64,000 nucleotides of DNA from an uncultured Spirochaetota bacterium. GTDB lineage: Bacteria > Spirochaetota > UBA4802 > UBA5550. A model generated the notes under the pieces. The model saw only the letters and a list, made by a program, of their open reading frames with translations, searched no databases and was not told the origin of the DNA. The DNA is taken from contig CAVSFD010000002.1 of assembly GCA_963727175.1 (NCBI GenBank), forward strand, positions 3,928,782-3,992,781, read 5' to 3'. Positions 1,487 to 40,835 of this stretch are shown one piece after another. Positions within the stretch are counted from its first letter, which is position 1. Each line of letters starts with the position of its first letter. Position numbers and translations under genes: made by a program.

Positions 1487-3526
1487 TTATCTGCTCAGAA
1501 TTCGTTTATAGTATTCTTCTTTATAATTTCTAGCCTTCAGTACAAACCGACGATAGCGCTTTGTTATATCAGGATGCTGTGAGGCTATGTTGTTCTTTTC
1601 ATTCGGGTCTTCTCCGAGATCATAAAGCTCATCAATCCCGTCATCATTTCTAAGGATATACTTCCACTGCTGATCGGCTATTCCCATAAAATCATCCTTC
1701 CACGACGTATGGAGGAGTGCCAACTGCTCCCGGTGAGAGGAGAATACCGATACCCCTTCCTGCTCGGGAGACCGTGCGATACCCAGGATGTCCAGTATGG
1801 TCGGAAGGATGTCGATGTGTCGGGTAATACCGTCATAGTATTCAGGCGAAGGGAACAGCTTTTTGCTGTATATCAGGAACGGCACATGCACGTTTTCGTT
1901 ATAGAGAAAGAACGGATGGTTGTAGTTCATTCTATGCTGATAAAAGGCCTCTCCATGGTCGGCAAAGAGAAATAGAAGCGTATTCTCCATGAGATTGCTC
2001 CGTTCCAGTTCATCAACGAGCATGCCCAGTGCAACGTCTGAATAATAGAGCGAATTCAGATAATTGAGCCAGTTCCTTTTCCTGTAATCCTGGTCTTCAT
2101 CCACGGAGCCGGTTATCTGGAATTCCTTACCGGGGATAGCGTAGGGGTGGTGCGGGTTCACCGGCAACAGCACCAGGAGAGAGGGCTGTTCGTGGCTGCG
2201 CTTCAAATAATCAACCGCCGGTCTGATCATTGCCCGTTCATCAATGCCCCAGCCCACCTGCCTGTTATAGGGCGGGACATTTACAAGATCGTTGTATTCC
2301 AGGATTTCGTCAAATCCTCTGTTCTTTAAAAATCGTTTCTGTCCAGCATAGCCGAGGCCGCCGGTATGTATCAGGCAGGTACGGTAATTGCGCTCCTTTA
2401 GTATCTCCGAAAGCGTACGGAGCTTGATGTCAGGATACTTCTGTATCACCATGTCCTTGGTATTTAAATCATAGGCGGAGGTGAGGACGGAGAGGAGGGC
2501 ATTTGCCGACAGGGGGTAATTGACATAATGGTTGCGGAAATTAATGCTGTTCTTCTCAAGACGGTGCCATGTTTCAATGACATGGCGATCCTGAATTTTG
2601 ATGTCATAATATCTGGACGGGGTAGATTCAAAAAAGTAGAGGATAATATTGTATCGTTTCCCGCGGGGGATACTATCCTGTCTTGAATACCGCCGATCCG
2701 TTGCCAGGGAATCCGTATTGAGCCGGAAGGTAAAGGGGGCCAGATCCTTCCCCATCGGCTTTTCAACGGCGCCGGGTCCGGGTGATGTATCGGTTATAAG
2801 GTTATAAACCGGGTTCAGAGAAAACTCGCGGAGCAACGAGAGGTAACGGGCAGCGTCATGCTTGTACCGTGATTCATGGTATCTGATCGGTGATTCTGGA
2901 TCAGTTGCGAGGGCTATGCCGAGACAGACAACAAGTACCGCGGGGATAAACTGACGTATCGCCCTGAACATGAGCAGCTCGGAATGGAATTCCACCATCT
3001 CCTGCATATCATTGTTTTTTTCCCACCGGTACAGGGCACTATTCATGGCGACCGCCAGCCCGGTCAGGAGAAAAAAGAGGATGTAGAATTCTGCCGAAAA
3101 TTCAGCAAGGGCTGAATCGAGAACATTGCCGAGACCGGAAAAATGCTCCCTGCCGGCGTAATTTTTCTGGAACGATGTTTCATAGACTCTGAAGAATTCC
3201 ATGGAAAAGAGCAGAAAGAAAATTAAAACGACCGAGTACGCGGTGATGATTATGTACCGTATCCGCCTGTATCGCGCCGACAGAAAGAGTATGATGAAGA
3301 GAAATGCCAGTGTAACGCCGAGGGTAGCGGAGTCATAGTGCAGGCATAGCCTGAGATATTCGGAAACCCCCGTGAACCTGACATCCAGGTAAAGGGACTT
3401 GATGTACCAGTATATCCTGAGCCGGTAAAACCCGTAGAGCGCAATGGCCAGAAGGCCCTGGGCAAGAAGGAGATGAGAAATTGCGTTATAGCGGCGTTGT
3501 ATTCGTGTCCAGAGAGGTTCCATCAT
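1487..3526 (-). CDS. membrane-anchored sulfatase/alkaline-phosphatase-superfamily protein (LtaS/MdoB-like architecture; Ser-type S-T-P-S-R motif)
   Basis: N-terminal ~250 aa is hydrophobic with multiple TM helices. C-terminal sulfatase domain has LFADHGEAF and an STPSR nucleophile motif (nt 2612-2626). Confidence 0.65.
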   Translation of the reverse strand: MMEPLWTRIQRRYNAISHLLLAQGLLAIALYGFYRLRIYWYIKSLYLDVRFTGVSEYLRLCLHYDSATLGVTLAFLFIILFLSARYRRIRYIIITAYSVVLIFFLLFSMEFFRVYETSFQKNYAGREHFSGLGNVLDSALAEFSAEFYILFFLLTGLAVAMNSALYRWEKNNDMQEMVEFHSELLMFRAIRQFIPAVLVVCLGIALATDPESPIRYHESRYKHDAARYLSLLREFSLNPVYNLITDTSPGPGAVEKPMGKDLAPFTFRLNTDSLATDRRYSRQDSIPRGKRYNIILYFFESTPSRYYDIKIQDRHVIETWHRLEKNSINFRNHYVNYPLSANALLSVLTSAYDLNTKDMVIQKYPDIKLRTLSEILKERNYRTCLIHTGGLGYAGQKRFLKNRGFDEILEYNDLVNVPPYNRQVGWGIDERAMIRPAVDYLKRSHEQPSLLVLLPVNPHHPYAIPGKEFQITGSVDEDQDYRKRNWLNYLNSLYYSDVALGMLVDELERSNLMENTLLFLFADHGEAFYQHRMNYNHPFFLYNENVHVPFLIYSKKLFPSPEYYDGITRHIDILPTILDILGIARSPEQEGVSVFSSHREQLALLHTSWKDDFMGIADQQWKYILRNDDGIDELYDLGEDPNEKNNIASQHPDITKRYRRFVLKARNYKEEYYKRILSR

Positions 3527-3649
3527 CAGTCATCATTACGCAATATTCGATTTTCCACGCCTGCGCCGCAGATCACGACGATGGAGCAGATGCAGGTAAA
3601 TAGAAAATATACAGGATGCCGGGTCAAGCACTTTGCGAAAGCTGTAGAT

Positions 3650-4531
3650 TCACTTGAAGGCGTACATTACCATGGAACTGGTGGCGGCGAAATCGTTGAA
3701 ATGAATTTTGCTGATGAAATGGTACATCGATATCCTGAGCCAGCGGCGGTAATCCCAGGTTGATTTAAATGTGTACCGTGATTTCTTCAGCTTCGGCAGC
3801 AATCCAAATTCAACCGGGTGAAAGATTTTGATGTTTCGGAATCCTATACCGGTCAGGGTTTGAGCAAGGTTTTTTTTGCTGAAATATGAAAGATGTCCCG
3901 GCATAAAATAGGCGTAGCCACTCCCCTGTAATCTCGCCTGAAGACCGTCCATGTTGGCTGTCTGTATCATCAGAAGCCCCCCCTTGCGGAGCAGGCGGTG
4001 GCATTCCTTCAGGGCGGACAGCGGATCAGGGAGATGTTCGACCACTTCGATCATGGTTATGGCTGAAAAAAAATCTCTTTCAAAGGGATGATCATCCAGG
4101 GTCCCGATGTGGACAGGGCCGACGGCAGCAGTCTTTGAATAACCGCCGGCGTACGGTGAAACCTCTATTCCATGAGGTGCATAATACCGGGAGGCCGCCT
4201 TGAGGAGTCCTCCGAAGGAGGAGCCCACATCAAGGAAGTTGCCACCGGGTACGTGCCGGTGAAGAATCTCGATGCGCTTGTTCCAGACATATGCAGAATA
4301 TTTTTCCGCCTCGCGCTCATCATAATAGGAGTATTCCGCCCGGCCGGTATAGTAATCCTCGCCGTATAGATTGCGTATCGCCTCGTCGTTCAGACGCGGG
4401 TTCATGAACATGAAGCCGCACGTTCCGCACCGGTCTACAGTGAATGCCGGGGAATATCGTTCAATCCGGTAGCGGGGTGCTATCTGTCCACTTCCGCAAA
4501 GAGGACAGGTATGTACTGATCGGTCAAACAT
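3650..4531 (-). CDS. class I SAM-dependent methyltransferase with N-terminal zinc-ribbon (CPLCGSG...CGTCGF)
   Basis: Two CxxC pairs at the N-terminus. SAM-binding glycine-rich motif (LDVGSSFGG) and an acidic loop typical of Methyltransf_23-like enzymes. Confidence 0.55.
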   Translation of the reverse strand: MFDRSVHTCPLCGSGQIAPRYRIERYSPAFTVDRCGTCGFMFMNPRLNDEAIRNLYGEDYYTGRAEYSYYDEREAEKYSAYVWNKRIEILHRHVPGGNFLDVGSSFGGLLKAASRYYAPHGIEVSPYAGGYSKTAAVGPVHIGTLDDHPFERDFFSAITMIEVVEHLPDPLSALKECHRLLRKGGLLMIQTANMDGLQARLQGSGYAYFMPGHLSYFSKKNLAQTLTGIGFRNIKIFHPVEFGLLPKLKKSRYTFKSTWDYRRWLRISMYHFISKIHFNDFAATSSMVMYAFK

Positions 4532-4580
4532 ACTGGGGTTACCGGCCGGGCCACGGACGTGTTCCGGACCTGATCCTCCG

Positions 4581-5222
4581 TTATCTGCGCGCCTCTATGA
4601 CCCAGTGGGATATTAATGCCGTGATATCCCCCATGAGCGTCCGTTCCATGAGGCCGTAGGTAAATTCATTAAAAATTGAGAATGATACCTTTAATTCTTC
4701 CTCGCTGTAAAAGGCGGCGATCGATCCGTTGATGTCGTTCAGGTCCGTGATCCATGTGTCGTTGCCGAGGTGCTTCCCCCGCTTCAGGTAGGTGTCGCGC
4801 TCTGACCTGAGTGTAGCAAAAAGGTATCCGCCTCTTTTGAGGATCCTTAGAATTTCCTCCAGCATTTCGATCAGATCGTACTTGTTGTTATAGTGGAGCG
4901 AACCCCAGGCAATGACGATGTCAGCAGAACCGCTTTTAAGGGGCAGGTGGAGGTTGTTTCCCTGCAGGAGCGGACCGGGACATTGTCTGCGGGAAATCAC
5001 AAGGGCATTGTAGCTCGCGTCGAGGCCGACGATCATGGACAGACCCATATCGGCGAGGAGTTTAAGGTGCCTTCCGCTGCCGCACCCGAGATCAACTGCG
5101 GTAAGTCCCGCCGGGGAGCTTAAGAGTGTATTTTTTTTCAGGAGGCGCACCAGGTTTTCATCCGGGTAGAGAAGTTCGGATTTCCCGGCGGTGTAATGGG
5201 TCTCCCATGAAGCATCTTTCAT
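4581..5222 (-). CDS. class I SAM-dependent methyltransferase
   Basis: Motif I VDLGCGSGRH and a post-I acidic residue (GLDAS). 213 aa. Stop overlaps the next gene, so likely co-operonic. Confidence 0.6.
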   Translation of the reverse strand: MKDASWETHYTAGKSELLYPDENLVRLLKKNTLLSSPAGLTAVDLGCGSGRHLKLLADMGLSMIVGLDASYNALVISRRQCPGPLLQGNNLHLPLKSGSADIVIAWGSLHYNNKYDLIEMLEEILRILKRGGYLFATLRSERDTYLKRGKHLGNDTWITDLNDINGSIAAFYSEEELKVSFSIFNEFTYGLMERTLMGDITALISHWVIEARR

Positions 5223-5225
5223 AGA

Positions 5226-6443
5226 TCACTTGATCCGGATATTGAAGTTTGATGCCGCGGTCTCGGAAAGCGCCAGTGCCTCTTCCCTGGTAGCGGCGGC
5301 TACGACTACAACGCCTATTCGGTCATGGTTGGTGACCGGGTCATTTATGGGCGAACCCATCTCCTTGAAAATACGTGAAAATATTGTTCCTTCCACGGTG
5401 CGGGGCCCTTCGGGATTGCATGACGCCAGTACACCCTTCTGCCCGGTTATGTACCGTACGACGACGGCGTTTCTTTTTTTCTGCTGCTGGGGAGGCCGGA
5501 ATCCGTTATTCGTCATCGATTTGATGGCCTCGCCTATGATGTTGTAGTTGATGCTGGCAGGCACCAGAACGTCCGGAATGAACTCGCCGCCGAATTCGGG
5601 TACCGCCTCGATAAGAAACGCCTCTTCATCGCTGGTGATGACAAGTTCCATGATGAGAGGAGCCCGTGCTATCCCGAATGCCCCGGCGACTTTCTGGCCT
5701 ATTTTCTCAATTCGTTTGGACAGGTGAAGATATTTTGACGGCGACACGTGGACCATGTCGATGAAGTAGGGGGGGTATGCTGTTTTCTTGTCGGTGATCT
5801 CCACGAGATGATACGTGCCGTCATGGATGATCCCGGCCACGATTATCTCGTCGCCCTCAATGAATTTCTCCAACAGATAGTCGTCTTCGCTACCGTATTG
5901 CGAGGTGCAGATTTTTTTTAATTCCGTGCTGTCGGAGGCCAGGCGCACATTTGTCTTGGCGTGACCGACATTCGGCTTGACGATTACCGGAAATCCATCT
6001 GCGGCATCTCTGTCGTTTCGTGACCGAAAATTATACTGGATACTGCAGGGCGACTGAATGGAATGATCGATAAAACGGTTTTTCATCTTTTTTTTATCGA
6101 TAAAGCAATCGGTGCTGGAAAAAGGTATGAAGGGTATCTTGAATTTTTCCGTCAGGTAGCTGGTGGTGACAATCGCAGGACCGTATGATTTAGTCATTAC
6201 TCCGCGGATATCGCCGTCAACCAGGAGTTCTATAAGTTTCTTGTATATGCTATCATAGTTTTCTATTGATTCCTGTATCTTCAGATCACATTGATAGAAG
6301 CCGGCTGCAGAAACGTTTGCATCGACACCGATAACATGAAAACCCTGTTTTTTCGCCTCGGATATGAGAGGGATCTGGTTTAATCCGGAACCGATGGAAA
6401 CAAAATAGTTCAATTGTTGTGTTTTTCTTTTTTTGAAAAGCAT
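5226..6443 (-). CDS. ATP-grasp domain ligase (carboxylate-amine ligase family)
   Basis: 405 aa with ATP-grasp-like core (VIVKP..GHAKTNVRLA, EKFIEGDEIIVAGII). GC drops toward the 5' end of the gene. Confidence 0.5.
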   Translation of the reverse strand: MLFKKRKTQQLNYFVSIGSGLNQIPLISEAKKQGFHVIGVDANVSAAGFYQCDLKIQESIENYDSIYKKLIELLVDGDIRGVMTKSYGPAIVTTSYLTEKFKIPFIPFSSTDCFIDKKKMKNRFIDHSIQSPCSIQYNFRSRNDRDAADGFPVIVKPNVGHAKTNVRLASDSTELKKICTSQYGSEDDYLLEKFIEGDEIIVAGIIHDGTYHLVEITDKKTAYPPYFIDMVHVSPSKYLHLSKRIEKIGQKVAGAFGIARAPLIMELVITSDEEAFLIEAVPEFGGEFIPDVLVPASINYNIIGEAIKSMTNNGFRPPQQQKKRNAVVVRYITGQKGVLASCNPEGPRTVEGTIFSRIFKEMGSPINDPVTNHDRIGVVVVAAATREEALALSETAASNFNIRIK

Positions 6444-6599
6444 GGATTATTTTTGAATGATTTAAGGATACCGTCAACAAGTTTATCATTCATCAATGGT
6501 AATATTACCTGTGCCGAGACTGCATGAACAGCCCGGTCAGGTGGAACAGAATTTTAGAAGGACAAAAACATGAGTTCATGATCGTTGAGTTATGGATTA

Positions 6600-6944
6600 C
6601 TATTCACCGGATCTTACATCAATATTTAATAGCTTATTATAATCGTGTAGTGACGACATGAAATTTGTATCAAACTGCCCATGTGCGGGTTCAACATTAA
6701 TGGTATAGATTTTTTTGGAGCTCAATAAGCAAAGGTGATTTTCCTTCTGTCTGCGTAGATGGAGATTATTGTAACTATTTATGAAGTGATACTCATTGAG
6801 GAAGGTGTTCAATTTTTCTTTAGGAAAGATCCTAATAGTATTGTATTTTTTCAACAAATTTTTGAATATGACAAAATTTGAAGGATCATTGATATTGTAA
6901 AAAAAATATACACAATTGTGTATTTGATAATTTATAGCTTGCAT
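6600..6944 (-). CDS. hypothetical protein, very low GC (Asn/Lys/Tyr-rich)
   Basis: 114-aa ORF in a ~25% GC stretch upstream of the ATP-grasp gene. No recognisable domain. May be spurious or foreign-derived. Confidence 0.2.
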   Translation of the reverse strand: MQAINYQIHNCVYFFYNINDPSNFVIFKNLLKKYNTIRIFPKEKLNTFLNEYHFINSYNNLHLRRQKENHLCLLSSKKIYTINVEPAHGQFDTNFMSSLHDYNKLLNIDVRSGE

Positions 6945-6967
6945 ATAATTTTGAATATTGCTATAAT
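6939..6967 (+). promoter_or_regulatory. near-consensus sigma70 promoter (TTGCAT-17-TATAAT) upstream of mcsA
   Basis: Hexamers TTGCAT at 6939-6944 and TATAAT at 6962-6967 with a 17-nt spacer, about 85 nt upstream of the mcsA start. Confidence 0.35.
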
Positions 6968-7053
6968 AGATATATTAGCCGTGTAAAAATGATTTTTGAT
7001 AACAGGATTTCTTAATTTTTTGTATATTATTAACAGGTATTGAAACATACACC

Positions 7054-7575
7054 ATGTTCTGTGAACGTTGCAAAAATATTGAAGCAACAATACACCTGAC
7101 CGAGATAATCAAGGATGTAAAGTCAGAACTGCATCTATGCGAAAACTGCGCCAGGGAAATAGGATTGAATTCAAAGCTTTCTAATTTTTCCCTTTCTATT
7201 CCGGAGATGCTGTCCTTTCTTGATATCGACGAAGTGGATGATTACGTAAACGGCAGTGTTTGTAAAAGCTGTGGCATGTCTTTTGTTGATTACAGCCGGG
7301 AAAGCAAGCTCGGATGTCCCGACTGCTACCGTTACCTGGGAGAATCGTTAAAATCGGTTATCGCGGGATATCATGGAGCGGTAAAACACACGGGGAAGCA
7401 TCCAAACAATCCCGTGGGCATTACCAGCATTACCTACGAAAAAACGGTTGTCGCAGCCAACCCGAAGAAGTCAATGGAGGAATTGAAGAATCTGTTGAAC
7501 CGGGCCGTGGCCGATGAACGCTACGAGGAAGCTGCCCTGCTGCGAGATAAGATAAGGGAATTGGAACTGAAATGA
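7054..7575 (+). CDS. mcsA: McsA-like activator of protein-arginine kinase (zinc fingers plus C-terminal UVR motif)
   Basis: CERC...CENC and CKSCG...CPDC zinc-finger pairs. C-terminal UvrB/C-like motif (ERYEEAALLRDKIRELE). Gene order is mcsA-mcsB-clpC. Confidence 0.7.
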   Translation: MFCERCKNIEATIHLTEIIKDVKSELHLCENCAREIGLNSKLSNFSLSIPEMLSFLDIDEVDDYVNGSVCKSCGMSFVDYSRESKLGCPDCYRYLGESLKSVIAGYHGAVKHTGKHPNNPVGITSITYEKTVVAANPKKSMEELKNLLNRAVADERYEEAALLRDKIRELELK

Positions 7576-7593
7576 TCGTGAGGGGAAGAACCA

Positions 7594-8648
7594 TTGTTTG
7601 AGGAAGTATTACAACAGTCCGGATTCTGGACATCAACCGGACCTTTCAGCCATATTGTTCTCTCCAGCAGGCTCAGGCTGGCCCGTAATATGCAGTCGGT
7701 TCCCTTCCCCGGCAGGATGCTCACCGACGAATCATATCCAATTCGGGGGGCCATGGAGAAGTTTGCCTATGAATCGAAGTACCGGGACCATACGAGCATC
7801 ATAGACCTGAAGGAGATTGACGCCAACGAGAAGCGTTTTTTACGCGAGCGTAATATTATTACCTACGAGATGGAAGTTGCCGAAAACAGCCTGGTAGCGA
7901 TTAATAACAGTGATGATTTCAGCATCCTGGTGAACGAGGAAGACCATTTTCGCATACAGGTCATCCGTCCAGGGCTGCAGCTCACAGAGGTCTACAAAAC
8001 GGCTGACCTGGTGGACAACGAACTGAACCGGTTTGTCCCGTATGCCTTCTCTGATGACCTGGGGTTCCTGACGGCCTGCACGTCGAACCTCGGCACCGGG
8101 CTCCGTGTTTCAGTTCTGCTTCATCTTCCGATAATAACCATGAAGAACGGTATACAGGAACTTCTTCCCGAAGACAGAAAAAACAAGATTGAGATAAAGG
8201 GCACCATTGGAAAATCGAGCAAGACTCTCGGCTCCCTGTACCAGCTTTCCAACAGGGTCTCCCTGGGTCTGTCGGAGGTAGACATCATCGAGTCACTTGA
8301 TGATGTAATCGGCAGTATCCTTGATAAAGAAGACACAAGACGCGATGAATTCTTCTCAGAGTCCCGCACGGAAGTTGAGGACATTGTATGGCGTGCCTAT
8401 GGCGCGCTCCGGTATTCGCGGCGGATCAGCTATATAGAGGCCATGGACCATCTATCAAATGTCCGCCTCGGTATTGTTCTGGCGATAATTAAGAGCATCG
8501 ATGTCAAAACGGTTAATGACATCATGGTCAATATCCAGTGGGCCCACCTCCAGAGACATTACGCGCTGCTCTTCAAGAGCACCGGCGAGTGCGACGAGTA
8601 CCGGGCCGACTATATACGGAAATTATTACATTCTTTAGAGGTCAAATA

Positions 8649-8649
<1 letters not shown>
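7594..8649 (+). CDS. mcsB: protein-arginine kinase McsB (ATP:guanido phosphotransferase family)
   Basis: Phosphagen-kinase active-site signature CTSNLGTGLR. 351 aa. Stop overlaps the clpC start (TAATG). Confidence 0.8.
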
Positions 8650-11054
<2,405 letters not shown>

Positions 11055-11148
11055 AGATATCGGCAAGGTTTCTCCCGGCGATGACGAGGTAGACGCTGAC
11101 GGCGAACTTCTGGAGACCAGCCCCCTGGAGATAAAAGGTATTCAGTGA

Positions 11149-12425
11149 ATGGGATATACTATAGCTGAAAAAATATTCGACTGCGCATCGCATCGACAAC
11201 CCGACACCAGCCATACACGTTTTAACAATTGACGCGGTTTTCTGCCACGAGATCACGACGCCGATAGCGATCAATGACCTGATCGCGAAAGGGAAAGGAC
11301 AGGGTGTTCGATCCCGAGAAAATCAAGGCCGTGATCGACCACGTGACCCCCGCAAAGGATTCCAAGACAGCGGAGCAGGGTAAAATCCTGCGAGACTGGG
11401 CGAGGCGCCACGGTATCCAGGATTATTTCGACATCGGGCGCAACGGCGTGTGCCACGCCCTGTTTCCGGAAAAAGGCTTCGTGCGCCCCGGCTACACCGT
11501 CATCATGGGTGATTCCCACACCTGCACCCACGGCGCCTTCGGTGCCTTCGCCGCCGGTGTCGGTTCGACAGACCTTGAAGTGGCCATCCTCAAGGGCGTG
11601 TGCGCCTTCAATTCGCCCCGGACCATGAGGATCAACGTTACCGGCGCACTTCCTGAAGGCGTCTTCGCCAAAGATGTCATCCTCTCGATAATCGCAAAAA
11701 TCGGCGTAAACGGCGCAACCAACATGGTCATGGAATTTACCGGCCCGGTGATTGCCGCCATGTCGCATGGAATCGCGCATGACCCTCTGCAACATGGCCG
11801 TTGAAGCAGGAGCAACAAGCGGGATCTGCTACCCTGACAGGACCACGGTGGACTACCTGTGGGAATTCATCAAAAATGATTTTGTATCCCCGGATAAGGC
11901 GCGTCAAAGATTACGCGAAGTGGATCTCCGATACCGACGCCAAGTATGAAAAGGTCATTGCCCTGGACGTATCCGACCTCGAACCGGTCGTCACCTTCGA
12001 CTACAAGCCGGACCAGGTGAAGCCGGTACGCCTCATGGAAGGGACTCCTGTCGACCAGATCTATATCGGTTCGTGCACCAACGGACGCATCGAAGATCTC
12101 CGGATCGCGGCCGCGGTTTTAAAAGGGAAGACGAATCAGCGACCGGGTCAGGGCCATCGTGTCTCCGGCAACCCCGAAGGTATACCAGACGGCCCTCGAA
12201 GAAGGAATAATAAAGATATTCATGGACGCTGGTTTCTGCGTCACCAACCCGACCTGCGGCGCCTGCCTGGGTATGAGCAACGGCGTGCTGGCGCCCGGCG
12301 AGGTGTGCGGCGCCACGACTAACAGGAATTTCCAGGGGCAGGATGGGGGCGGGCGGCATGGTGCACCTCATGAGCCCGGCTACCGCGGCTGCCTCTGCAA
12401 TTGCCGGGTCCATCACGAATTCTGA
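11149..12425 (+). pseudogene. leuC: 3-isopropylmalate dehydratase/aconitase-family large subunit (LeuC-like), disrupted by at least 4 frameshifts
   Basis: LeuC-like segments (MGYTIAEKIF..., [67 protein letters not shown]) lie in different reading frames across 11149-12425. Confidence 0.6.
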
Positions 12426-15337: not shown

Positions 15338-16450
15338 CTACAAGGACAAAATGTTTGTCTTCAAGGAGCTGGACGACGTACATGTCCCCTTTTTCGGGGG
15401 GAGACCTACCATGTTGATGAGTTCCTTGGTGCCGAACTCGAAATTATGTGGTTGCTTCGATTCTATCCTGATTTTCTGCTTTTCAAGCTGTATGAGCAGT
15501 GTATCGTAAATTCGTCCAAGAGGATCGTGAATCATCAGGTTTTCCAGCTGACGATAGGCTGTCCATATCCGTTCGCTCAGAATCTGTATCAGGCGCGTTG
15601 CCAGCTGCGGCTGGGCCTGTACCATGCTCTCGAAATTTGACTTGTTAATGGCCAGAACTTCCACGTCACCGAAGGTGATGGCCGAGGCGCTCCGCGGCTT
15701 GTTGTCGAGGATGGCCATTTCACCGAAAATATCCCCCTGCTTGAGCACGGCAAGGAGCACTTCCTCGTTTACAATCTTGGTGATTTTCACCTTCCCCGAC
15801 TGTATGATGAATAGTTCTTCCCCCGGCTCATATTCGCAGAAGATCATGGTGTTGTCCCTGTACTTGCGGTTCATGCCGGCCCGCTGACCGGTTTCCGTTG
15901 ATTTGAGGGGTGCCTTCAGCGACTGGAGTCGCTGTATTGCCATATCGCGGTTATCACCGTCAGGCCGATACTGCAGGTATTTCTGAAATGCGTAGACGGC
16001 ATGGTTGAAGACTTTCTTTTTTACATAGTACTCGCCTATGTTAAAAAGATGAGACGGATCCTCGGTGGCAACGTTTTTGAAGGTAAGATTGGTAATGGCC
16101 TGGTCGAAATCTCGGAGCTGTCTGCTGAAAAACCGGATGATTTTCATGGCAACGGTAGGGTTTTTCTGTATCAGGAGACCGAATTTCTCGCGTTCAACGG
16201 ATATGAGGGAGACATTCTCAAGGGCAACGGCCGATTCGATCCTGGCGTGTGCGCTCATGCACGACACAACGCCGAAAAAATCACCGGGACCAAGGACGTT
16301 GTAAGGCTCGGTTGAAACCACGGGGTTTTCCTTGGCAACCTTTACCTTTCCCTTGAGGATTATATAAAAATTATTGGCATTCTTTTTGCCTTCAACGACA
16401 ACAAAGGAATTGGCGAGATAATTTTCGACTTTGAACTGTATATCAGACAT
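15338..16450 (-). CDS. tandem cyclic-nucleotide-binding (CAP effector) domain protein with TPR-like linker
   Basis: Two cNMP-binding motifs (GDFFGVVSCMSAHARIESAVA and GDIFGEMAILDNKPRSASA). No DNA-binding HTH seen. Confidence 0.65.
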   Translation of the reverse strand: MSDIQFKVENYLANSFVVVEGKKNANNFYIILKGKVKVAKENPVVSTEPYNVLGPGDFFGVVSCMSAHARIESAVALENVSLISVEREKFGLLIQKNPTVAMKIIRFFSRQLRDFDQAITNLTFKNVATEDPSHLFNIGEYYVKKKVFNHAVYAFQKYLQYRPDGDNRDMAIQRLQSLKAPLKSTETGQRAGMNRKYRDNTMIFCEYEPGEELFIIQSGKVKITKIVNEEVLLAVLKQGDIFGEMAILDNKPRSASAITFGDVEVLAINKSNFESMVQAQPQLATRLIQILSERIWTAYRQLENLMIHDPLGRIYDTLLIQLEKQKIRIESKQPHNFEFGTKELINMVGLPPKKGTCTSSSSLKTNILSL

Positions 16451-26215: not shown

Positions 26216-26244
26216 TTGACATAGGTCAATGCGCGTTTTATAAT
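26216..26244 (+). promoter_or_regulatory. consensus sigma70 promoter (TTGACA-17-TATAAT) whose -35 lies inside a 14-bp FNR/Dnr-type palindrome TTGAC-ATAG-GTCAA
   Basis: TTGACA at 26216-26221. TATAAT at 26239-26244. Inverted repeat TTGACatagGTCAA at 26216-26229 matches the CRP/FNR-family half-sites TTGA(T/C)-N4-(A/G)TCAA. Confidence 0.45.
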
Positions 26245-26498
26245 CCCGTGGTATGTATTATATGTATTCTTAAGCCTGGTGCCGGAACAATGCAAATGCG
26301 GCAGTTAGCGGTGACGCAAACAGGTAGCGCACCATTGTTCAGCAAAGGCTGTTTTATCAGGGGTACCTTCAATTATGAAGGTGTATGGTCTGTCATTAGT
26401 TCAATATTCCGGGAAACTTGATTCCCCTGTTTTTGTGGAATATTATACTTACAACAGTATCATACAACCTATACAATTTTATAAATAAGGAAGGAGTT

Positions 26499-27047
26499 AT
26501 GGTAGATTCAAGCATGGTTCTCTGGGGTCAGACCCTTGCCTATACATTCTATGCCATTGCAATTATGGCCGTGATAGGATGGTTCGGGTACAAGGTAACA
26601 AAAAGTGGAAAGGGCAGGGAGATTAAACCCGCGCTCTTTTACGCGTTTGTCGGATTCCTGGTTGTGACAGGGGTATCGCTGCACATCATTACCCACGAAA
26701 CAATTCCATGGAAACCGATGGACCTTAACCGGTCGGCAATTAAAGCCGATAAAACATTTTCAATACAGATCGTTCAGCATAAATTCATATTGCCCCCGGG
26801 AAAAATGGTGATCAAGAAGGGTGAAATCGTAAGGTTTAATGTAACGTCAGATGATCTGACCTATGGTTTCGGTTTGTTCCGCGCGGATAATTCCATGGTT
26901 TTTCAAATGCAGGTCCTTCCCGGATATGTGAACGATATACTCTGGCGTTTCGAAAAGACCGGCGTGTATACCATACGGTCAACTGAATATTCCGGACCAA
27001 AAGGACTGGGGATGATCGAGAAGAACGCGGTTGAAGTCACGGATTAA
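26499..27047 (+). CDS. heme-copper-oxidase subunit II-like protein (2 TM + cupredoxin-like domain, no CuA ligands, no heme-c motif)
   Basis: Two N-terminal TM helices. The subunit-II-like periplasmic domain (FNVTSDDLTYGFGLF...YTIRSTEYSGPKGLGM) aligns with the CuA loop but lacks the H/C/C/H/M ligands. RBS AAGGAGG before the ATG at 26499. Confidence 0.6.
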   Translation: MVDSSMVLWGQTLAYTFYAIAIMAVIGWFGYKVTKSGKGREIKPALFYAFVGFLVVTGVSLHIITHETIPWKPMDLNRSAIKADKTFSIQIVQHKFILPPGKMVIKKGEIVRFNVTSDDLTYGFGLFRADNSMVFQMQVLPGYVNDILWRFEKTGVYTIRSTEYSGPKGLGMIEKNAVEVTD

Positions 27048-27091
27048 TGCTGGCCGCATATAAATTTTTAATTAACATAAGGAATTAAAAA

Positions 27092-28714
27092 ATGAACTTG
27101 ATACAAACTTTTTTGAAAGGTGAGCAGGGTTTATTCAAGCCGGATTCCCTGACGCCGATGCAGAAATTGACACTGCGTTTTGTCGTGGTAGGTATTCTCT
27201 ATTACGGCCTCGTGGTGCTTGAGGGTATGATCATGAGGATGTACCTGGTGAAACCGGTGATCGATCTTGTTCCTCCAGAACAGTATTACGCGATAATGAC
27301 AGCCCATCCTCTGGTTGGGATTTTCGGATCGACCTATTCGATCGTATTCGGCGCCTTTCTCTTCCTGGTGCCTTTTCTCATGAAAAAACCGCTCTGGAGC
27401 ATAAAGCTCGGCAACTGGACATGCGGTTTGGTTGCAGGAGGTACGTTCACCTTCTGGCTTTCAGGATTTATCACGCATTACGCTCCGATGTATACTCTTT
27501 ACTGGCCGCTTCCAGCTGATTTTACCCAGTTCAGCCTATGGGGCGGGATATTTTTCATCGCCGGCATCGCGCTGGTCATGGTAGGTACGGTGTTCTTTGT
27601 GATAAACATATTCACGACTATAACCTACACGCCCGAAGGAATGAAGAAACAGCCCGTCGGAGCTCTCCTTGGCTCTGCGCTTGGATTGAGCGGTTTCAGG
27701 AATCTCTTCACAAAAAATAAGAAAGAACATCTTGTGTCACTGCCTGTTGCCGCTATCGCCCGCGGCACCATAGATACCGCCCTTAATTCGGGCATTATCC
27801 TTTTCACCGGCGTGCTGATACTGGTGTATATGATAGCAGCCGTGTTCGGCGTAAACTTGAAGCATTCCGCCGTTGACGCGCTGCTGTACAAGAACTGGTT
27901 CTGGTGGGGCCTTGACCTGATCGCGGACGGGCTGGTGCTGATTTTTGTCGCCGGGACCTGGTATCTTCTCGCCACCCTCATCACCGGGAAAAAGCTGTTC
28001 ATGGAAAACGTCGCCAGGGCGGCTCTCTTCGTCGAACTGGTGGTATCATGGACTGTCTGGTCACACCACCTTATGTCTGACCAGGCCCAGCCGGGAATCC
28101 TGAAGGTAGTATCGGGCGAAATGGTCACGGCCTTTGAGCTCATAACACAGGGACTGGCCTTCTTTATTACCCTGGTGACGCTCTGGAGCGCTCGGCCCCT
28201 TAAGATGACCAACCCTCTCAAGTTCCTCCTGGGCGGTCTCCTTGGCTTCGGACTCGCGGTGCCGGCAGGCATCATCCAGGCCGACCTGGGACTGAACAGG
28301 ATCCTGCATAATACCCAGTGGATCGTGGGTCCCCATGTTCACGTAGCTGTCCTGGTGGGTCTCACCATGACGCTTTATTCAGCGGTCTATTACCTCTTCC
28401 CGGTCCTGACGAACGGCGCCAAGCTTTACAGCGAAAAGCTCGCCAACATACATTTCTGGTGCCACCTCCTCGGCGGTATCGGCATGGGCGCCTTCATGGG
28501 AATGGCAGGTTTACAGGGGATGCTGCGGCGGACGATATATTTTGAAGGAGAGTTTACACCCTTCATGATACTCGCGGCCCTTGCAGGTTCGCTGCTCCTC
28601 ATCGGCTTCGCAGCCTTCTTCTTTAATATAGTCATGAGTGTCGGTCTGAATGGCGTAATCGGAATTTTCCTGCCGTCAAAATTAAAAACAAAAGATCTGC
28701 TGCCAGGCAAATAA
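27092..28714 (+). CDS. divergent heme-copper oxidase superfamily subunit I (NOR/oxidase-like; helix-VI CuB histidine replaced)
   Basis: 12-TM protein. Helix II IMTAHPLVGIFG has the low-spin heme His. Helix VII WSHHLM has the two CuB His. Helix X GPHVHVAV is the H-x-H heme pair. HFWCHLLGG...GMLRRT region present. The helix-VI GHPEVY position reads DALLYKNWFWWGLDLIADG, so the His and the cross-link Tyr are absent. Confidence 0.7.
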   Translation: MNLIQTFLKGEQGLFKPDSLTPMQKLTLRFVVVGILYYGLVVLEGMIMRMYLVKPVIDLVPPEQYYAIMTAHPLVGIFGSTYSIVFGAFLFLVPFLMKKPLWSIKLGNWTCGLVAGGTFTFWLSGFITHYAPMYTLYWPLPADFTQFSLWGGIFFIAGIALVMVGTVFFVINIFTTITYTPEGMKKQPVGALLGSALGLSGFRNLFTKNKKEHLVSLPVAAIARGTIDTALNSGIILFTGVLILVYMIAAVFGVNLKHSAVDALLYKNWFWWGLDLIADGLVLIFVAGTWYLLATLITGKKLFMENVARAALFVELVVSWTVWSHHLMSDQAQPGILKVVSGEMVTAFELITQGLAFFITLVTLWSARPLKMTNPLKFLLGGLLGFGLAVPAGIIQADLGLNRILHNTQWIVGPHVHVAVLVGLTMTLYSAVYYLFPVLTNGAKLYSEKLANIHFWCHLLGGIGMGAFMGMAGLQGMLRRTIYFEGEFTPFMILAALAGSLLLIGFAAFFFNIVMSVGLNGVIGIFLPSKLKTKDLLPGK

Positions 28715-28740
28715 AAGCCTGACAGAAGAACAGTATGTAA

Positions 28741-28776
28741 ACCCGTTTCCTGATTTGCCAGGGAACGGGTTTTTTC
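28741..28776 (+). terminator. rho-independent terminator (aacccgtttcc...ggaacgggtttttt)
   Basis: 10-bp stem and T tract directly after the subunit I stop. Confidence 0.55.
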
Positions 28777-28805
28777 ATATGGTACTTATGAAAAAAGTTG
28801 TGATT

Positions 28806-28975
28806 AATTAGAAGGGAAGGGTGCCATCCCGGTGAGCAGGCAACAAGGATGTCGCCGATCCCGCCAAGTCGTCAGGGTGCGCTTGCCAGGATGGCCGAGT
28901 GCAGAGCCGCGACAGGAGGTCGCATTTGGCTCTGCTTATCCGAGGCGGGCGAGCTGGTTGGCTCCCTTCCCGAAA
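28806..28975 (+). other. GC-rich, internally complementary leader between the terminator and gcvR; candidate structured cis-regulatory RNA of unknown class
   Basis: About 170 nt at ~65% GC between AT-rich sequence on both sides. 5' gggaaggg...gcca pairs with 3' tggc...cccttccc. Contains caggcaacaagga and cgccga motifs. Confidence 0.2.
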
Positions 28976-29110
28976 TATCAAATACTGCCCATAAAAAATT
29001 CATACGACATAAAAATTTTAACTTGTATTTTTCCATGATGCGTATATTGATAATCCTTATAATTTTCAAATAATCAATAAAACAGTTCTGTTATTAATTA
29101 TCATGGTGGT

Positions 29111-29656
29111 ATGATGAGTTCATATATTGTTCTCACAGCTGTCGGATCCGACAGGCCGGGACTGGTTGATGAAATAAGCTCCTTCCTGGCAGCGCGTAAG
29201 ATCAACATCGAAGACAGCCGCATGGCGGTCCTGGGCGGCGAATTCGCGGTCATCCTTCTCGCCTCCGGCCCCGCAACCATCGTGGACAAACTGGGGATAG
29301 CATTGAGTATTCTGGAAAAAAGCACCGGCCTGAGCGTGCAGGTGAAGAATACCCTGTCCCCGCACCAGAGGAAAATAGCGCCGTCGATGCCCCATCGTCT
29401 TTCAGCCACCAGCATGGACCATCCGGGCATTGTTCACGAGATAACCCGCATATTGCATAAGAGGAACATCAATATCGAATCAATGGAAACCCGCGTTACC
29501 AATGCTCCTCTGAGCGGCGCACCGATTTTCAACATGAAATGCATAATAAATATTCCTGTCGAGGAAAAAGCTTCAACTATCCGCAAAGAACTGGAAAAGC
29601 TGGGCGATAAAATGGATATCGACATTGAAATCGACGCGGTCGATACCTTTCAATAA
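29111..29656 (+). CDS. gcvR: two-ACT-domain regulatory protein (GcvR-like glycine cleavage system regulator)
   Basis: 181 aa with two ACT repeats (LTAVGSDRPGLVDEISSFLA; LSATSMDHPGIVHEITRIL). Located immediately upstream of gcvT. Confidence 0.55.
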   Translation: MMSSYIVLTAVGSDRPGLVDEISSFLAARKINIEDSRMAVLGGEFAVILLASGPATIVDKLGIALSILEKSTGLSVQVKNTLSPHQRKIAPSMPHRLSATSMDHPGIVHEITRILHKRNINIESMETRVTNAPLSGAPIFNMKCIINIPVEEKASTIRKELEKLGDKMDIDIEIDAVDTFQ

Positions 29657-38951: not shown

Positions 38952-40835
38952 GTGGGGTGCACTATGAGTAAGGGATTCTGTGATAATATCTCTCAAGTTG
39001 ATTTAAGCACCGGTTCGATTGCAACTATACATCCCGGTGCTGATTTTTATCGCATGTACCTGGGAGGTGGAGCTCTTGGATCTTATTTCCTCCTGAAAGA
39101 AACCGGTCCTGATACCGATCCTCTCTCTAATGAAAACGTATTGACTATTGCCACCGGCATTGCCACCGGCGCGGCCGTATCAGGCGTGAGCCGCTGCAGT
39201 GTTACGGCACTATCCCCTCTCACGAACATGGTGGCGGACAGCCAGGCAGGCGGAAACATCGGTCCCATGATCAAGAGGGCGGGGTTTGATGCAATCGTGA
39301 TCAAGGGAAAAGCCGCAAGCCTATCATACCTCCTGGTGGACGGCGGCAGCGTGACGATCGTTGATGCCGCCGGCCTGTCGGGTCGAACGGTGATAGAGGC
39401 TCGTGAAATTCTCCTGGAAAAGCACGGCACTAAAAACATAAGCATCATTCAGTGCGGTCCGGCAGGGGAAAAAATGGTGCGCTATGCCAATATCATGGCA
39501 GACGGAAATGACGCCTTCGGCAGGACCGGCCTGGGCGCGGTAATGGGAAGCAAGAACCTCCGTGCCGTTGTGGTAAAAGGCACCGGTGATGTCAGTTTCG
39601 CCGATCCTGACGCCCTCAAGGAACTGGGGAAGGCGGGGGCTAAACGCCTTACCGGTTCCGGATTTCCGGAAACTCTGCGAAAATTCGGTACCCCCGGGGT
39701 TGTCAAGTTCCAGGCCGAGGGAGGCAACTTCGCAACGCATAATTATTCCCGGGGCTGGCATCCTGATTACGCAAAGCTGGACGGCTCAACATACGAACCG
39801 CAGATCGGCGCAGGCACTACAACCTGCTATGGGTGCGTTGTTTCGTGCCGCAAGAGGATCAAGGCATCATCTCCTTATGAGCTGACTGATGCCCTTGGCG
39901 GACCGGAATTTGAAACACTCGGGCTGCTCGGGTCAAACCTCGATATAACGGATGCGGCCGTTGTTGCGAAAGCGAACGAACTGTGCAATAAGAACGGTAT
40001 TGACACCATCACCATGGGTTGTATTGCCGGGTACCTCTTCGAATGTGCGGAAAAGGGATTGATAAACGAGGCTGATACAGATGGCAGGACTCTCAGCTTT
40101 GGCGATCCGGATGCCTTGTTCTGGCTTATTGAAGCCGTTGCCCAAAGAAAGGGAGTCGGCGATGTCTGCGCCGAAGGCTTTGAGGCGCTTATCAAAAAAT
40201 TCGGCGAAAAGACACGGCCCTTCGCGATACATGTCAAGGGATCAGGCCTGGCGGTTCACATGCCACAGGTGAAGCCGAGCCTGGCTCTTATGTACGCCGT
40301 GTGTCCCATCGGACCGGACCACATGTCATCGGAACACGACTGGCTCCTGGCAAGCAAATCTGAAGCCGCCATGGGCCTCGGCATCATGGGCCAGGAAGAC
40401 GCCCCCTCGACGAGCTCCAACAAAGTGCGAATGACTGCCTACTCGCAGATATTCTACAGCGTTCTCGATTCAATGTCCCTGTGCATGTTTCCATGGGGTC
40501 CTGGTAGTCTATTTTCCTACCGTGACCTCGAAGACCTGGTGCGGTTTACGACAGGCTGGCAGATGACCCTGTGGGAGCTCATGAAAGTTGGAGAGCGCAG
40601 GATCAATATGATGCGCCGCGTGAACGCAAAGAGGGGTTTTACTAAGGAACATGATGTCCTGCCGGAACGGCTTTTTGATCCGCTGCCGGATGGTCCCAGC
40701 AAGGGACGTCATGTTGATCGCGCAGCCTTCAGCCGCATGAAAGATGAATATTACGGCTTCATGGGATGGGATGACAGGGACGGGAATCCCACAAGGGGAA
40801 AACTGATCGAGCTGGGACTCGATTGGACGATATGA
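38952..40835 (+). CDS. tungsten-type aldehyde:ferredoxin oxidoreductase family protein (AOR)
   Basis: 627 aa. AOR N-terminal domain and conserved Cys ligands of the [4Fe-4S]/tungstopterin site (TTCYGCVVSC region). The first Met options are 38952 and 38964. Confidence 0.8.
   Translation: MGCTMSKGFCDNISQVDLSTGSIATIHPGADFYRMYLGGGALGSYFLLKETGPDTDPLSNENVLTIATGIATGAAVSGVSRCSVTALSPLTNMVADSQAGGNIGPMIKRAGFDAIVIKGKAASLSYLLVDGGSVTIVDAAGLSGRTVIEAREILLEKHGTKNISIIQCGPAGEKMVRYANIMADGNDAFGRTGLGAVMGSKNLRAVVVKGTGDVSFADPDALKELGKAGAKRLTGSGFPETLRKFGTPGVVKFQAEGGNFATHNYSRGWHPDYAKLDGSTYEPQIGAGTTTCYGCVVSCRKRIKASSPYELTDALGGPEFETLGLLGSNLDITDAAVVAKANELCNKNGIDTITMGCIAGYLFECAEKGLINEADTDGRTLSFGDPDALFWLIEAVAQRKGVGDVCAEGFEALIKKFGEKTRPFAIHVKGSGLAVHMPQVKPSLALMYAVCPIGPDHMSSEHDWLLASKSEAAMGLGIMGQEDAPSTSSNKVRMTAYSQIFYSVLDSMSLCMFPWGPGSLFSYRDLEDLVRFTTGWQMTLWELMKVGERRINMMRRVNAKRGFTKEHDVLPERLFDPLPDGPSKGRHVDRAAFSRMKDEYYGFMGWDDRDGNPTRGKLIELGLDWTI

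Follow-up and report, generated by a model that had tools for sequence, protein, structure and literature searches.

A two-gene operon for a putative gNOR-type heme-copper oxidase with two active-site aspartates in an uncultured Spirochaetota bacterium

Closest described systems

Four NO reductase families have been predicted that together are said to account for much of the natural NOR diversity. Among them is the gNOR family of heme-copper oxidases (HCO), and no other HCO family is reported to have lost an active-site histidine. Credit for the family is reportedly also due to Sievert et al. in 2008 and to Hemp and Gennis in 2008. According to its peer-reviewed description, gNOR proteins carry an Asp instead of one active-site His, are accompanied by a cupredoxin subunit II devoid of CuA, and may be quinol-oxidising (Murali et al. 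2024, PMC11214002); they occur in Bacteria and Archaea, mainly in sulfidic habitats (PMC11214002). The "active-site residue" of gNOR is listed as D (PMC8756737 Table A4), and the originally cited hosts are Campylobacterota, Aquificota and NC10. Reference gNORs are those of Sulfurimonas (S. denitrificans), Sulfurovum, Persephonella (P. marina) and M. oxyfera (DAMO_1118). gNOR is a predicted family, none of whose enzymes has so far been purified or assayed, and NO reduction is ascribed to it by analogy and on the basis of a bioinorganic mimic (PMC11214002). A preprint additionally describes a His-to-Glu substitution of a heme ligand in gNOR (10.1101/592808).

Among enzymes with solved structures, the ba3 oxidase of Thermus thermophilus (1EHK/1XME) reduces O2 and possesses H233, Y237 and a full CuA site. 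In cNOR and qNOR, FeB is held by three His and a Glu, the catalytic chain is associated with a heme-c NorC or a fused N-terminal domain, and affinity is to the C family. The Escherichia coli bo3 oxidase, in turn, has a three-His CuB site with a Tyr cross-link, subunits III and IV, and a quinol site formed by R71, D75, H98 and Q101. Its subunit II is a cupredoxin without CuA, and its electrons come from quinol (comparison in PMC11214002).

Operon layout and active-site residues

The window, i.e., the whole 64-kb stretch of DNA that was analysed, carries a two-gene operon with the order subunit II-subunit I within positions 26216-28779; ORF calling confirmed both the coordinates and the reading frames (Table 1). 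The operon is closed by a strong terminator, called at 28739-28772 and listed to 28779 in Table 1. Its leader differs in length between relatives and matched no known RNA family in an Rfam search, which over the whole window returned two tRNAs only, none inside the operon. A recent foreign origin of the operon was rejected, as its GC and GC3 lie inside the host range. Neither a further nitrogen-oxide gene nor one for quinone or heme biosynthesis was found in the window.

Table 1. Features of the operon, in window coordinates
Feature	Position	Strand	Remarks
sigma-70-type promoter TTGACA-17 nt-TATAAT	26216-26244	+	hexamers at 26216-26221 and 26239-26244; 12/12
palindrome TTGAC-ATAG-GTCAA	26216-26229	no strand	left arm doubles as -35 hexamer
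5' leader, ~250 nt	26245-26498	+	ends in RBS AAGGAAGGAG
RBS AAGGAAGGAG of subunit II	26487-26496	+	
subunit II, ATG start, 182 aa	26499-27047	+	two TM helices and cupredoxin domain
subunit I, 540 aa, HCO fold	27092-28714	+	
D275-D279 codons, helix VI	27914-27928	+	D275 27914-27916, D279 27926-27928
intrinsic terminator	28739-28779	+	14-bp stem (7 G-C pairs), 6-nt loop, T run

Subunit I matches PF00115 over residues 26-500 (E=1e-56), and its AF2 model (pTM 0.80) was matched by Foldseek to bo3/aa3 subunit I at TM ~0.7, with low model confidence around the heme/metal ligands (residues 63-74, 327-333 and 398-412). A sequence-only reading of this DNA had counted five of the six canonical histidines, and H72, H325, H326, H415 and H417 are indeed present. 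By alignment, H72 and H417 are the ligands of the low-spin heme and H415 that of the high-spin heme, while R479/R480 form the heme-propionate pair. The loss of the helix-VI His, claimed by the same reading, was corroborated as well. In the ungapped profile alignment with ba3 (1ehk_A), Asp275 aligns to the CuB ligand His233 and Asp279 to Tyr237, and a single-sequence alignment with plant COX1 (7jro) gave an identical helix-VI register with D275 at the CuB His. Residues 259-324 contain no His, and none of the profile alignments places at the helix-VI CuB position the His that the reading had itself named as a possible refutation. H258 was considered as a substitute ligand and rejected, being unconserved in P0123, a 46% identical relative used as a query, and in the family at large.

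The cross-linked Tyr is absent, as had been stated, but it does have the counterpart in the alignment that the reading had denied it, namely Asp279. Asp thus fills both the His and the Tyr positions and neither is left empty; the helix-VI stretch WWGLDLIAD stands where oxygen reductases have WWxGHPxVY. The residues of the non-heme metal site are D275, H325 and H326, with D279 at the Tyr position, so that the three-His CuB and the His-Tyr cross-link of A, B and C family oxygen reductases are absent and D275/D279 are found instead. In short, the CuB-type site has swapped one His ligand and the Tyr cofactor for two invariant aspartates. A quinol site could not be identified in subunit I, where the four bo3 residues are unmatched; R29, E44, R49 and T70, invariant polar residues of helices I-II, are candidates only for quinol binding.

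For subunit II, whose structure was predicted with database homologues, the AF2 model (pLDDT 81.5) consists of two TM helices and a beta domain of COX2 fold, which superposes on the ba3 CuA domain with an rmsd of 2.6 A. The ba3 subunit II differs in having one TM helix. There is no Cys anywhere in subunit II and therefore neither CuA nor a CXXCH motif, in agreement with the earlier description of this protein as cupredoxin-like and lacking both. In the profile alignment with the ba3 CuA domain, the positions of H114, C149, C153 and H157 are taken by Y122, S161, S165 and G169, respectively, and M172 is retained at the M160 position. The former CuA loop, R-S-T-E-Y-S-G, is invariant among relatives. 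Judging from these residues, neither CuA nor heme c can be accommodated by subunit II. By ORF calling, the gene adjoins that of subunit I in 72 of the best 80 loci.

Family membership and spread

We found the following gNOR features at the locus: the heme-ligand His set, the HCO fold, D275, D279 and an adjacent cupredoxin subunit II without CuA. Membership was assigned by these published defining features and by exclusion, not by phylogeny. In a search of the subunit I profile against solved structures, the A family (4e-15) and the B family (8e-14) were matched about equally well and cbb3 (C family) at ~3e-8, and no cNOR or qNOR chain was recovered at E<0.01. For gNOR, a relation to the B family and not to the C family, cNOR or qNOR is expected; by these E-values the protein would, like gNOR, be closer to the A/B-family oxidases than to either kind of NOR. 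It does not lie among ordinary quinol oxidases of intact site, the other outcome that had been put forward as a refutation. Further shared traits are the two-subunit make-up, the Asp residues at the His and the Tyr positions, the occurrence in Bacteria and Archaea and the origin of some loci from sulfidic sites. The earlier suggestion of an uncharacterised NOR-like HCO branch, possibly fed by quinol, is supported and the branch can be named, its features matching those in print for gNOR (PMC11214002; PMC8756737 Table A4). By contrast, the expectation of new active-site chemistry went too far, the His-to-Asp site being already described in the literature.

Two differences from the described family were noted. 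The His-to-Glu heme ligand of the preprint is not seen here, H72, H415 and H417 being invariant; as this substitution is missing from the peer-reviewed description of gNOR, we treat it as imprecise wording rather than a defining trait, and no testable defining feature differs. The second difference concerns the hosts, which are fermentative or syntrophic anaerobes here, in contrast to the originally cited Campylobacterota, Aquificota and NC10. The gNOR hosts in these three groups are sulfur-oxidising or denitrifying. With P0123 as a query, the family extended to archaea and Chloroflexi, and no Methylomirabilis, Sulfurimonas or Persephonella was present among the best 120 matches.

Among enzymes of solved structure, the ba3 oxidase is one of the closest to subunit I (E ~1e-13) and comes first for subunit II (CuA domain, E=1e-5 to 3e-4); it shares the HH and HxH motifs, and helix VI can be aligned to it with no gap. 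It differs by H233, Y237, CuA and O2 reduction, as against D275, D279 and Y122/S161/S165/G169 at this locus. The bo3 subunit I is among the top Foldseek matches and its subunit II was also matched, and both systems have a cupredoxin subunit II without CuA; the three-His CuB with Tyr, subunits III/IV and the quinol site of bo3 are unmatched here. What is shared with cNOR/qNOR is the proposed reaction, the lack of a Tyr cofactor and a carboxylate four residues past the helix-VI ligand position, D279 corresponding to Glu211 of Pseudomonas aeruginosa cNOR. Unlike in these enzymes, only two of the three FeB His remain, a cupredoxin without CXXCH takes the place of NorC or the fused domain, and no NOR chain was matched at the threshold given above.

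The seven-residue pattern H-D-D-H-H-H-H is present in 246/246 relatives (41-100% identity) from Bacteria and Archaea, among them branches whose source names are Thermoprotei, Methanomethylicia, Anaerolineae and Actinobacteria. In total, 104 positions of subunit I are at least 98% conserved, R479/R480 among them. Identity in subunit I does not fall below 76% across MAGs that their depositors assign to at least seven phyla, under the labels Spirochaetota, Smithella, Ignavibacteria, Bacteroidales, Planctomycetales, Acidobacteriota and Chloroflexia. Sulfidic sites are the source of several loci, e.g., the SulCav MAGs L022 and L037. Related sequences on record exceed 3,000, and with this locus a family known from hundreds of anaerobes gains a further member.

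Regulation, proposed function and alternatives

The promoter upstream of subunit II scores 12/12, with an inferred start near 26251, and its -35 hexamer lies inside a TTGAC-N4-GTCAA palindrome (TTGACATAGGTCAA, 26216-26229), both as initially reported. By chance, 1.7 such palindromes with at most one mismatch are expected in the window, so that a single site is unremarkable. The palindrome is credible because it is conserved in orthologous loci: the box is kept as TTGACnnnnGTCAATG, perfectly in L001, L003 and L005 and with one mismatch in L002, all of them Spirochaetota loci, although the flanks have diverged. The sequence-only reading had placed the box in the FNR/Dnr type; the CRP/FNR class holds, but the FNR/Dnr consensus (TTGAT-N4-ATCAA) does not fit, and the core TTGACnnnnGTCAA is exactly the one predicted for HcpR. 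The predicted consensus of this CRP/FNR family protein is wyTTGACnnnnGTCAArw (Rodionov et al. 2005, PMC1274295). HcpR is an NO-stress regulator, and its published predicted sites precede hcp, frdX and Synechocystis norB (PMC1274295). The site described here differs from them in its flanks, which are off wy...rw with TG as the conserved 3' flank, in overlapping the -35 and the spacer of a consensus promoter, and in having no HcpR gene in the window.

Counted from the perfect promoter, the box occupies -35 to -22 and is centred at -28.5, where an operator rather than a class II activator would be expected; the centre is at -29.5 in L005. These positions, together with the Rrf2 repressors that are the commonest operon neighbours in other phyla and have an operator-like repeat of their own, would agree with the palindrome being the operator of a repressor (Rrf2-type or another dimeric one) encoded elsewhere and blocking an otherwise constitutive promoter. 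We regard this explanation, which concerns regulation only, as a real possibility but somewhat short of an even chance, given that the palindrome has an HcpR-type core unlike the Rrf2-linked repeat, and that the box of L003 is centred at -41.5 by the best -10 hexamer and L001 has no -10 at 17-nt spacing, as for activator-dependent promoters. The -10 hexamer at this spacing is unconserved in L001, L002 and L003, and the box could thus serve activation or repression.

Gene neighbourhoods were counted in the best 80 loci from a scan of genome contigs. A Fe-S-type Rrf2 regulator is encoded immediately upstream in 42 of them, and further neighbours are Crp/Fnr regulators, DUF438-hemerythrin-PAS proteins, hemerythrins and DUF1858/DUF2249 proteins. 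Such neighbours fit NO or redox stress. The repeat ATGnTA-N8-TAnCAT was detected in 11/41 Rrf2-linked loci versus 0.29 in shuffles, while TTGA-N6-TCAA boxes gave no consistent site in Ignavibacteria clusters with a Crp/Fnr gene. Downstream of the operon, about ten Bacteroidales loci encode YeeE/YedE-like transporters and rhodaneses. Phmmer searches with neighbours from other loci found no Rrf2, Crp/Fnr or HcpR-like regulator in the window; the sole match was a gene at 15338-16450 on the minus strand, the product of which has two cNMP domains and no HTH.

Taken together, we consider it probable, by analogy with the published family, that the locus encodes a gNOR-type HCO, a membrane complex in which subunit I pairs with a cupredoxin subunit devoid of CuA and which would reduce NO under HcpR-like control. 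The 2-His/carboxylate site (Asp275/His325/His326 with Asp279) is proposed to bind a non-heme iron (FeB) rather than copper. Electrons would be delivered by (mena)quinol, because there is no cytochrome c or CuA entry point. The enzyme would then convert 2 NO to N2O, a two-electron reaction for which a Tyr radical is unneeded. In the fermentative Spirochaetota host this probably serves NO detoxification, not denitrification, and a CRP/FNR regulator of HcpR-like, NO-responsive type, with its gene beyond the window, may act via TTGAC-N4-GTCAA. Less favourable to this reading are the failure to identify a quinol site, the lack in the window of further nitrogen-oxide genes, of an HcpR-like regulator and of quinone or heme biosynthesis genes, the box centre at -28.5, the His-to-Glu substitution claimed in the preprint, and the low model confidence around the heme and metal ligands.

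The same architecture could also be read as an O2-scavenging quinol oxidase of strict anaerobes, which would protect the cell by reducing O2 to H2O2 or, slowly, to water. The homology to A/B-family oxygen reductases and the bo3-type subunit II without CuA agree with such a role, the hosts are anaerobes that meet O2, and Fe-S Rrf2 regulators and hemerythrins respond to oxidative stress too. Yet, all known O2 reductases of the HCO superfamily have a three-His CuB and a cross-linked Tyr (PMC11214002), both of which are invariantly replaced here, and we therefore find this role quite unlikely. Slightly better placed, though still unlikely, is a different reaction at the heme/2-His-2-Asp site, with N2O, nitrite, hydroxylamine or sulfur species as substrate and perhaps adapted to sulfidic habitats. 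The ligand set resembles that of no characterised NOR, gNOR is mostly from sulfidic environments (PMC11214002), and the Bacteroidales loci place transporter and rhodanese genes next to the operon. However, the linkage to sulfur genes is limited to one related group of loci and may be a single inherited arrangement; no other context gene indicates a specific alternative substrate, and both the kinds of regulator present and the HcpR-type box are those of NO-stress regulons.

Loss of the canonical CuB and CuA ligands might, in principle, also mark a decayed, non-catalytic remnant of an oxidase. Against this stand the intact ORFs, RBS, promoter and terminator, the high identity of subunit I across the labelled phyla, and the invariance of the substituted residues in 246 sequences, which extends to the former CuA loop. 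By this conservation pattern, a remnant is effectively refuted and appears extremely improbable.

The locus belongs to a known, uncharacterised kind, and NO reduction would be its function by analogy. Taken alone, it leaves existing knowledge unchanged, and gNOR is already part of published HMM sets for metagenome surveys. It does supply, from a mesophilic anaerobe, a compact operon of two genes with clear boundaries, and the family-wide invariance of both Asp275 and Asp279 is added evidence. A more speculative view, which we hold to be rather improbable, is that the clade represents a horizontally spreading, sulfide-tolerant NO-stress module, or catalyses another reaction, rather than being an enzyme of denitrification. 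On this view, the high identity of subunit I across differently labelled MAGs and the ties to Fe-S Rrf2 regulators, HcpR-type boxes, hemerythrins and, in Bacteroidales, YeeE/rhodanese genes go together with a heme/2-His-2-Asp iron site that is without a characterised counterpart and could depart in chemistry or metal from all known NORs. For the gNOR-type NO reductase that we favour, the HcpR-type box and the Rrf2 neighbours provide a regulatory link supporting a role in NO stress.

Ligands of subunit I and extent of its family

Subunit I of the two-gene operon (see table) matches PF00115 over nearly its entire length (E=1e-56) and falls below every equivalog threshold in NCBIfam. Its AF2 model (mean pLDDT 75.5, pTM 0.80) predicts the all-helical fold of oxidase subunit I, the closest PDB matches being bo3 and aa3 subunit I (TM ~0.7), with the ligand regions modeled at low confidence. 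By alignment, His72, His325/326, and His415/417 correspond to the residues that bind low-spin heme, CuB, and heme a3/heme in known oxidases. In helix VI, WWGLD275LIAD279 aligns without gaps to WWTGH233PIVY237 of the Thermus ba3 oxidase (profile alignment; 1ehk_A numbering), which puts Asp275 in place of the CuB histidine and Asp279 in place of the cross-linked tyrosine; the register is identical when the single sequence is aligned to plant COX1. Residues 259–324 contain no histidine, and His258 was rejected as a substitute ligand, as it is not conserved across the family. Both alignments thus agree with the sequence-only reading that the helix-VI histidine is absent. The tyrosine, held to have no counterpart, is indeed lost, but its position is not empty, being occupied by Asp279.

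A search of 5.8 billion proteins returned more than 3,400 matches to subunit I, the best 120 of which share 81–100% identity with it and, where the source is named, originate from Spirochaetota, Smithella, Ignavibacteria, Melioribacter, and Bacteroidota. When each GTDB species is represented by one genome, relatives are encoded in 461 stretches; the record titles of the best 80 (76–94% identity) add Planctomycetales, Acidobacteriota, and Chloroflexia MAGs. Only two neighbors of full length (72 and 46%) were found in a library clustered at 50% identity, the next proteins dropping to 26–31%, so that, judged by identity, the family is tight and well separated. A search from the 46% neighbor (P0123) added branches labeled by their sources as Thermoprotei, Methanomethylicia, Actinobacteria, Anaerolineae, and Dehalococcoidia. 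In 246/246 full-length members collected (41–100% identity to the window subunit I), the pattern at the seven key positions is H-D-D-H-H-H-H, and 104 positions are conserved at ≥98% across them, including Arg479/Arg480, a pair typical of heme-propionate binding. In distant heme-copper oxidoreductases (HCOs) of the same alignment, the helix-VI site is GHPxVY (oxygen reductases) or H...N (sNOR-like).

The clustered library also contains a different HCO-like subunit I (P0222, 462 aa) with WVALRFYLQG in helix VI and glutamine for the first histidine of the HH pair. With the alignment pattern H-R-Q-Q-H-H-H, two of its metal ligands appear to be replaced, and it is therefore not a member of gNOR, a predicted nitric oxide reductase family.

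Subunit II, family assignment, and proposed chemistry

All COX2, CoxB, and NosZ matches of subunit II in Pfam and NCBIfam were sub-threshold. The profile of its family matches the ba3 CuA domain (E=1e-5 to 3e-4) in an unambiguous alignment, with Tyr122, Ser161, Ser165, and Gly169 facing His114, Cys149, Cys153, and His157, and Met172 retained for Met160. Since it contains no cysteine, subunit II has neither CuA nor heme c, as expected from its initial description as cupredoxin-like without CuA ligands or a CXXCH motif. Its AF2 model (pLDDT 81.5) predicts two TM helices and a beta domain that superposes on the ba3 CuA domain (rmsd 2.6 Å), and the top structural matches of the model are all oxidase subunits II, E. 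coli bo3 CyoA included. Invariant in 74 sequences, including those of the distant L081 branch, the former CuA loop (R160-S-T-E-Y-S-G166) evidently still serves some purpose.

gNOR was described as the first HCO family with an active-site histidine swapped, for aspartate, all other families keeping the three histidines; its subunit II is a cupredoxin without CuA residues, like that of bo3, it is possibly quinol-oxidizing, and its hosts are Bacteria and Archaea, mostly of sulfidic habitats (Murali et al., 2024; PMC11214002). A table of the active-site residue, adapted from Hemp & Gennis, assigns Y to oxygen reductases, E to cNOR/qNOR, N to sNOR, Q to eNOR, and D to gNOR, with Sulfurimonas, Sulfurovum, and Persephonella as gNOR examples (PMC8756737); M. 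oxyfera DAMO_1118-1119 is a further cited gNOR. Among the new NOR families, eNOR is the sole one with experimental confirmation (PMC11214002). Each of the features listed for gNOR in the literature appears to be present in the operon. The exception is a His-to-Glu heme ligand, reported in a preprint (10.1101/592808) and absent from the peer-reviewed description (PMC11214002), which is not seen in subunit I. Assigned by defining features and exclusion, not phylogeny, the operon very probably belongs to gNOR and, on this sequence evidence, is a further member of a known, bioinformatically defined family, not a new kind of enzyme. The altered-ligand, NOR-like, uncharacterized HCO branch proposed earlier is thereby supported and, by Asp275/Asp279 and the CuA-less subunit II, refined to gNOR.

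Both heme sites are intact in subunit I. The third metal site would consist of Asp275, His325, and His326, Asp279 lying a helix turn away, and the complex has neither CuA nor heme c through which electrons could enter. Two histidines and a carboxylate form the classic non-heme iron motif; the cNOR carboxylate lies four residues after the helix-VI ligand, which we take to be the position of Asp279 here; and NO reduction, a two-electron reaction, requires no Tyr radical. From these analogies we infer NO reduction, the most likely reaction being 2 NO + 2 e- + 2 H+ -> N2O + H2O, which would most likely take place at the heme/FeB centre with electrons from (mena)quinol.

Promoter region and regulation

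Features of the window and of related loci
Feature	Position	Strand	Remarks
UVR-motif protein	7054-7575		
Stretch between UVR-motif and ClpC-like genes	7576-8537		no ORF ≥90 aa kept by greedy ORF caller
ClpC-like ATPase	8538-11054		
Cyclic-nucleotide-binding protein	15338-16450	-	370 aa; two such domains
Sigma-70 promoter, perfect	26216-26221 / 26239-26244	+	TTGACA, 17 nt, TATAAT
Leader	between promoter and subunit II		~250 nt
Terminator-like hairpin in leader	26411-26426		GGGAA-ACTTGA-TTCCC, then CTGTTTTTGT
Subunit II	ATG 26499 to 27047	+	182 aa; RBS AAGGAAGGAG
Subunit I	27092-28714	+	540 aa
Intrinsic terminator, strong	28739-28772	+	14-bp stem, T run; operon end
Intergenic region	28780-29110		~330 nt
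Promoter-like site	29047-29074		10/12; before ACT-domain gene
ACT-domain gene	29111-29656		followed by gcvT/H/P
Two aldehyde:ferredoxin oxidoreductases and 2-hydroxyglutaryl-CoA dehydratase D-component	38952-40835, 55512-57419, 62710-63999	+, -, -	
L081 hemerythrin-domain protein	7714-8274		186 aa; directly downstream of subunit I
Rrf2-locus elements	~100 nt before and at Rrf2 start		examples L030, L038, L042
YeeE/rhodanese loci			L007, L036, L046, L052, L056, L062, L072, L079
Larger Ignavibacteria/Melioribacter clusters	~2500-7600		L043, L067, L074, L075
Larger Ignavibacteria/Melioribacter clusters	~7700-11700		L016, L019, L077

The perfect promoter claimed in the sequence-only reading was recovered (26216-26244). 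The leader, which harbors a small hairpin, varies in sequence and length among relatives (92–283 nt in Spirochaetota loci) and had no match in Rfam. A longer subunit II ORF with a TTG start at 26418 finds no support, since homologs have 182 aa and the RBS lies just ahead of the ATG at 26499.

The window contains a single copy of the palindrome TTGACATAGGTCAA, which by itself is not significant. TTGACnnnnGTCAATG is kept in 4/4 other Spirochaetota loci, one with a single mismatch, while flanks, leader length, and spacer bases differ. HcpR, a CRP/FNR-family regulator, controls hcp, frdX, and in Synechocystis also norB; as its predicted box, wyTTGACnnnnGTCAArw, has the TTGAC-N4-GTCAA core and FNR/DNR boxes are TTGATnnnnATCAA (Rodionov et al., 2005; PMC1274295), HcpR is by motif the closer match. 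The CRP/FNR-type class proposed earlier for the palindrome therefore stands, with an HcpR-type core kept in Spirochaetota, but FNR/Dnr specifically does not. In the window and L005, a good -10 lies 17–18 nt past TTGAC, so the putative box is centered at -28.5 and -29.5, respectively, an operator-like position; the best -10 of L003 places the center at -41.5, and L001 has no -10 at this spacing. No HcpR-like gene was found within the 64-kb window, where the sole match to Crp/Fnr neighbors of other loci is the cyclic-nucleotide-binding protein, in which no DNA-binding domain was detected.

Rrf2-bearing loci carry elements different from the window palindrome: an inverted repeat, ATGnTA-N8-TAnCAT (ATGCTATA-N-TATCAT), right before the Rrf2 ATG (11/41, vs. 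0.29 in shuffles), and, farther upstream, a CRP-like TGTGAAAnnnnTxACA box (TGTGAAATAATTAACA). L059 has a perfect TGTGA-N6-TCACA.

Genomic neighborhood and host

Among the best 80 of the 461 loci, the commonest operon neighbor is an Rrf2 regulator with a three-Cys Fe-S motif, located directly upstream in 42 and scoring under all equivalog cut-offs, NsrR and IscR included. Also recurrent are Crp/Fnr regulators, DUF6448, ABM and cupin proteins, DUF1858+DUF2249, DUF438-hemerythrin-PAS, hemerythrin, and small COX1-like membrane proteins. These associations fit a role in NO or redox stress; since many of the loci are close relatives, they do not count as independent of one another.

Individual lineages show arrangements of their own. 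In about 10 Bacteroidales loci, two YeeE/YedE-like membrane proteins and rhodanese-domain proteins are encoded downstream of subunit I, an arrangement that may indicate a link to sulfur or may have been inherited just once. Ignavibacteria/Melioribacter possess a same-strand cluster of Crp/Fnr, DUF6448, ABM, a 154-aa COX1-like membrane protein, subunit II, and subunit I; other loci have DUF1858+DUF2249 and a 421-aa COX1-like protein downstream. Subunit II of L081, which belongs to the 46%-identity branch, is just 140 aa long, with one N-terminal helix region in the alignment.

The flanks of the window operon are arranged identically in the sister species (L001), and its GC and GC3 are host-like. 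The intergenic region ahead of the ACT-domain gene matched neither a glycine riboswitch nor any other family in Rfam, and no other nitrogen-oxide genes lie within the 64-kb window. Its gene content is housekeeping and fermentative, with MutS, a ClpC-like ATPase, a glutamine-synthetase-like protein, and a glycine cleavage operon. By its aldehyde:ferredoxin oxidoreductases and the dehydratase, the host is recognizable as a fermentative anaerobe, in which a heme-copper-type enzyme is unusual.
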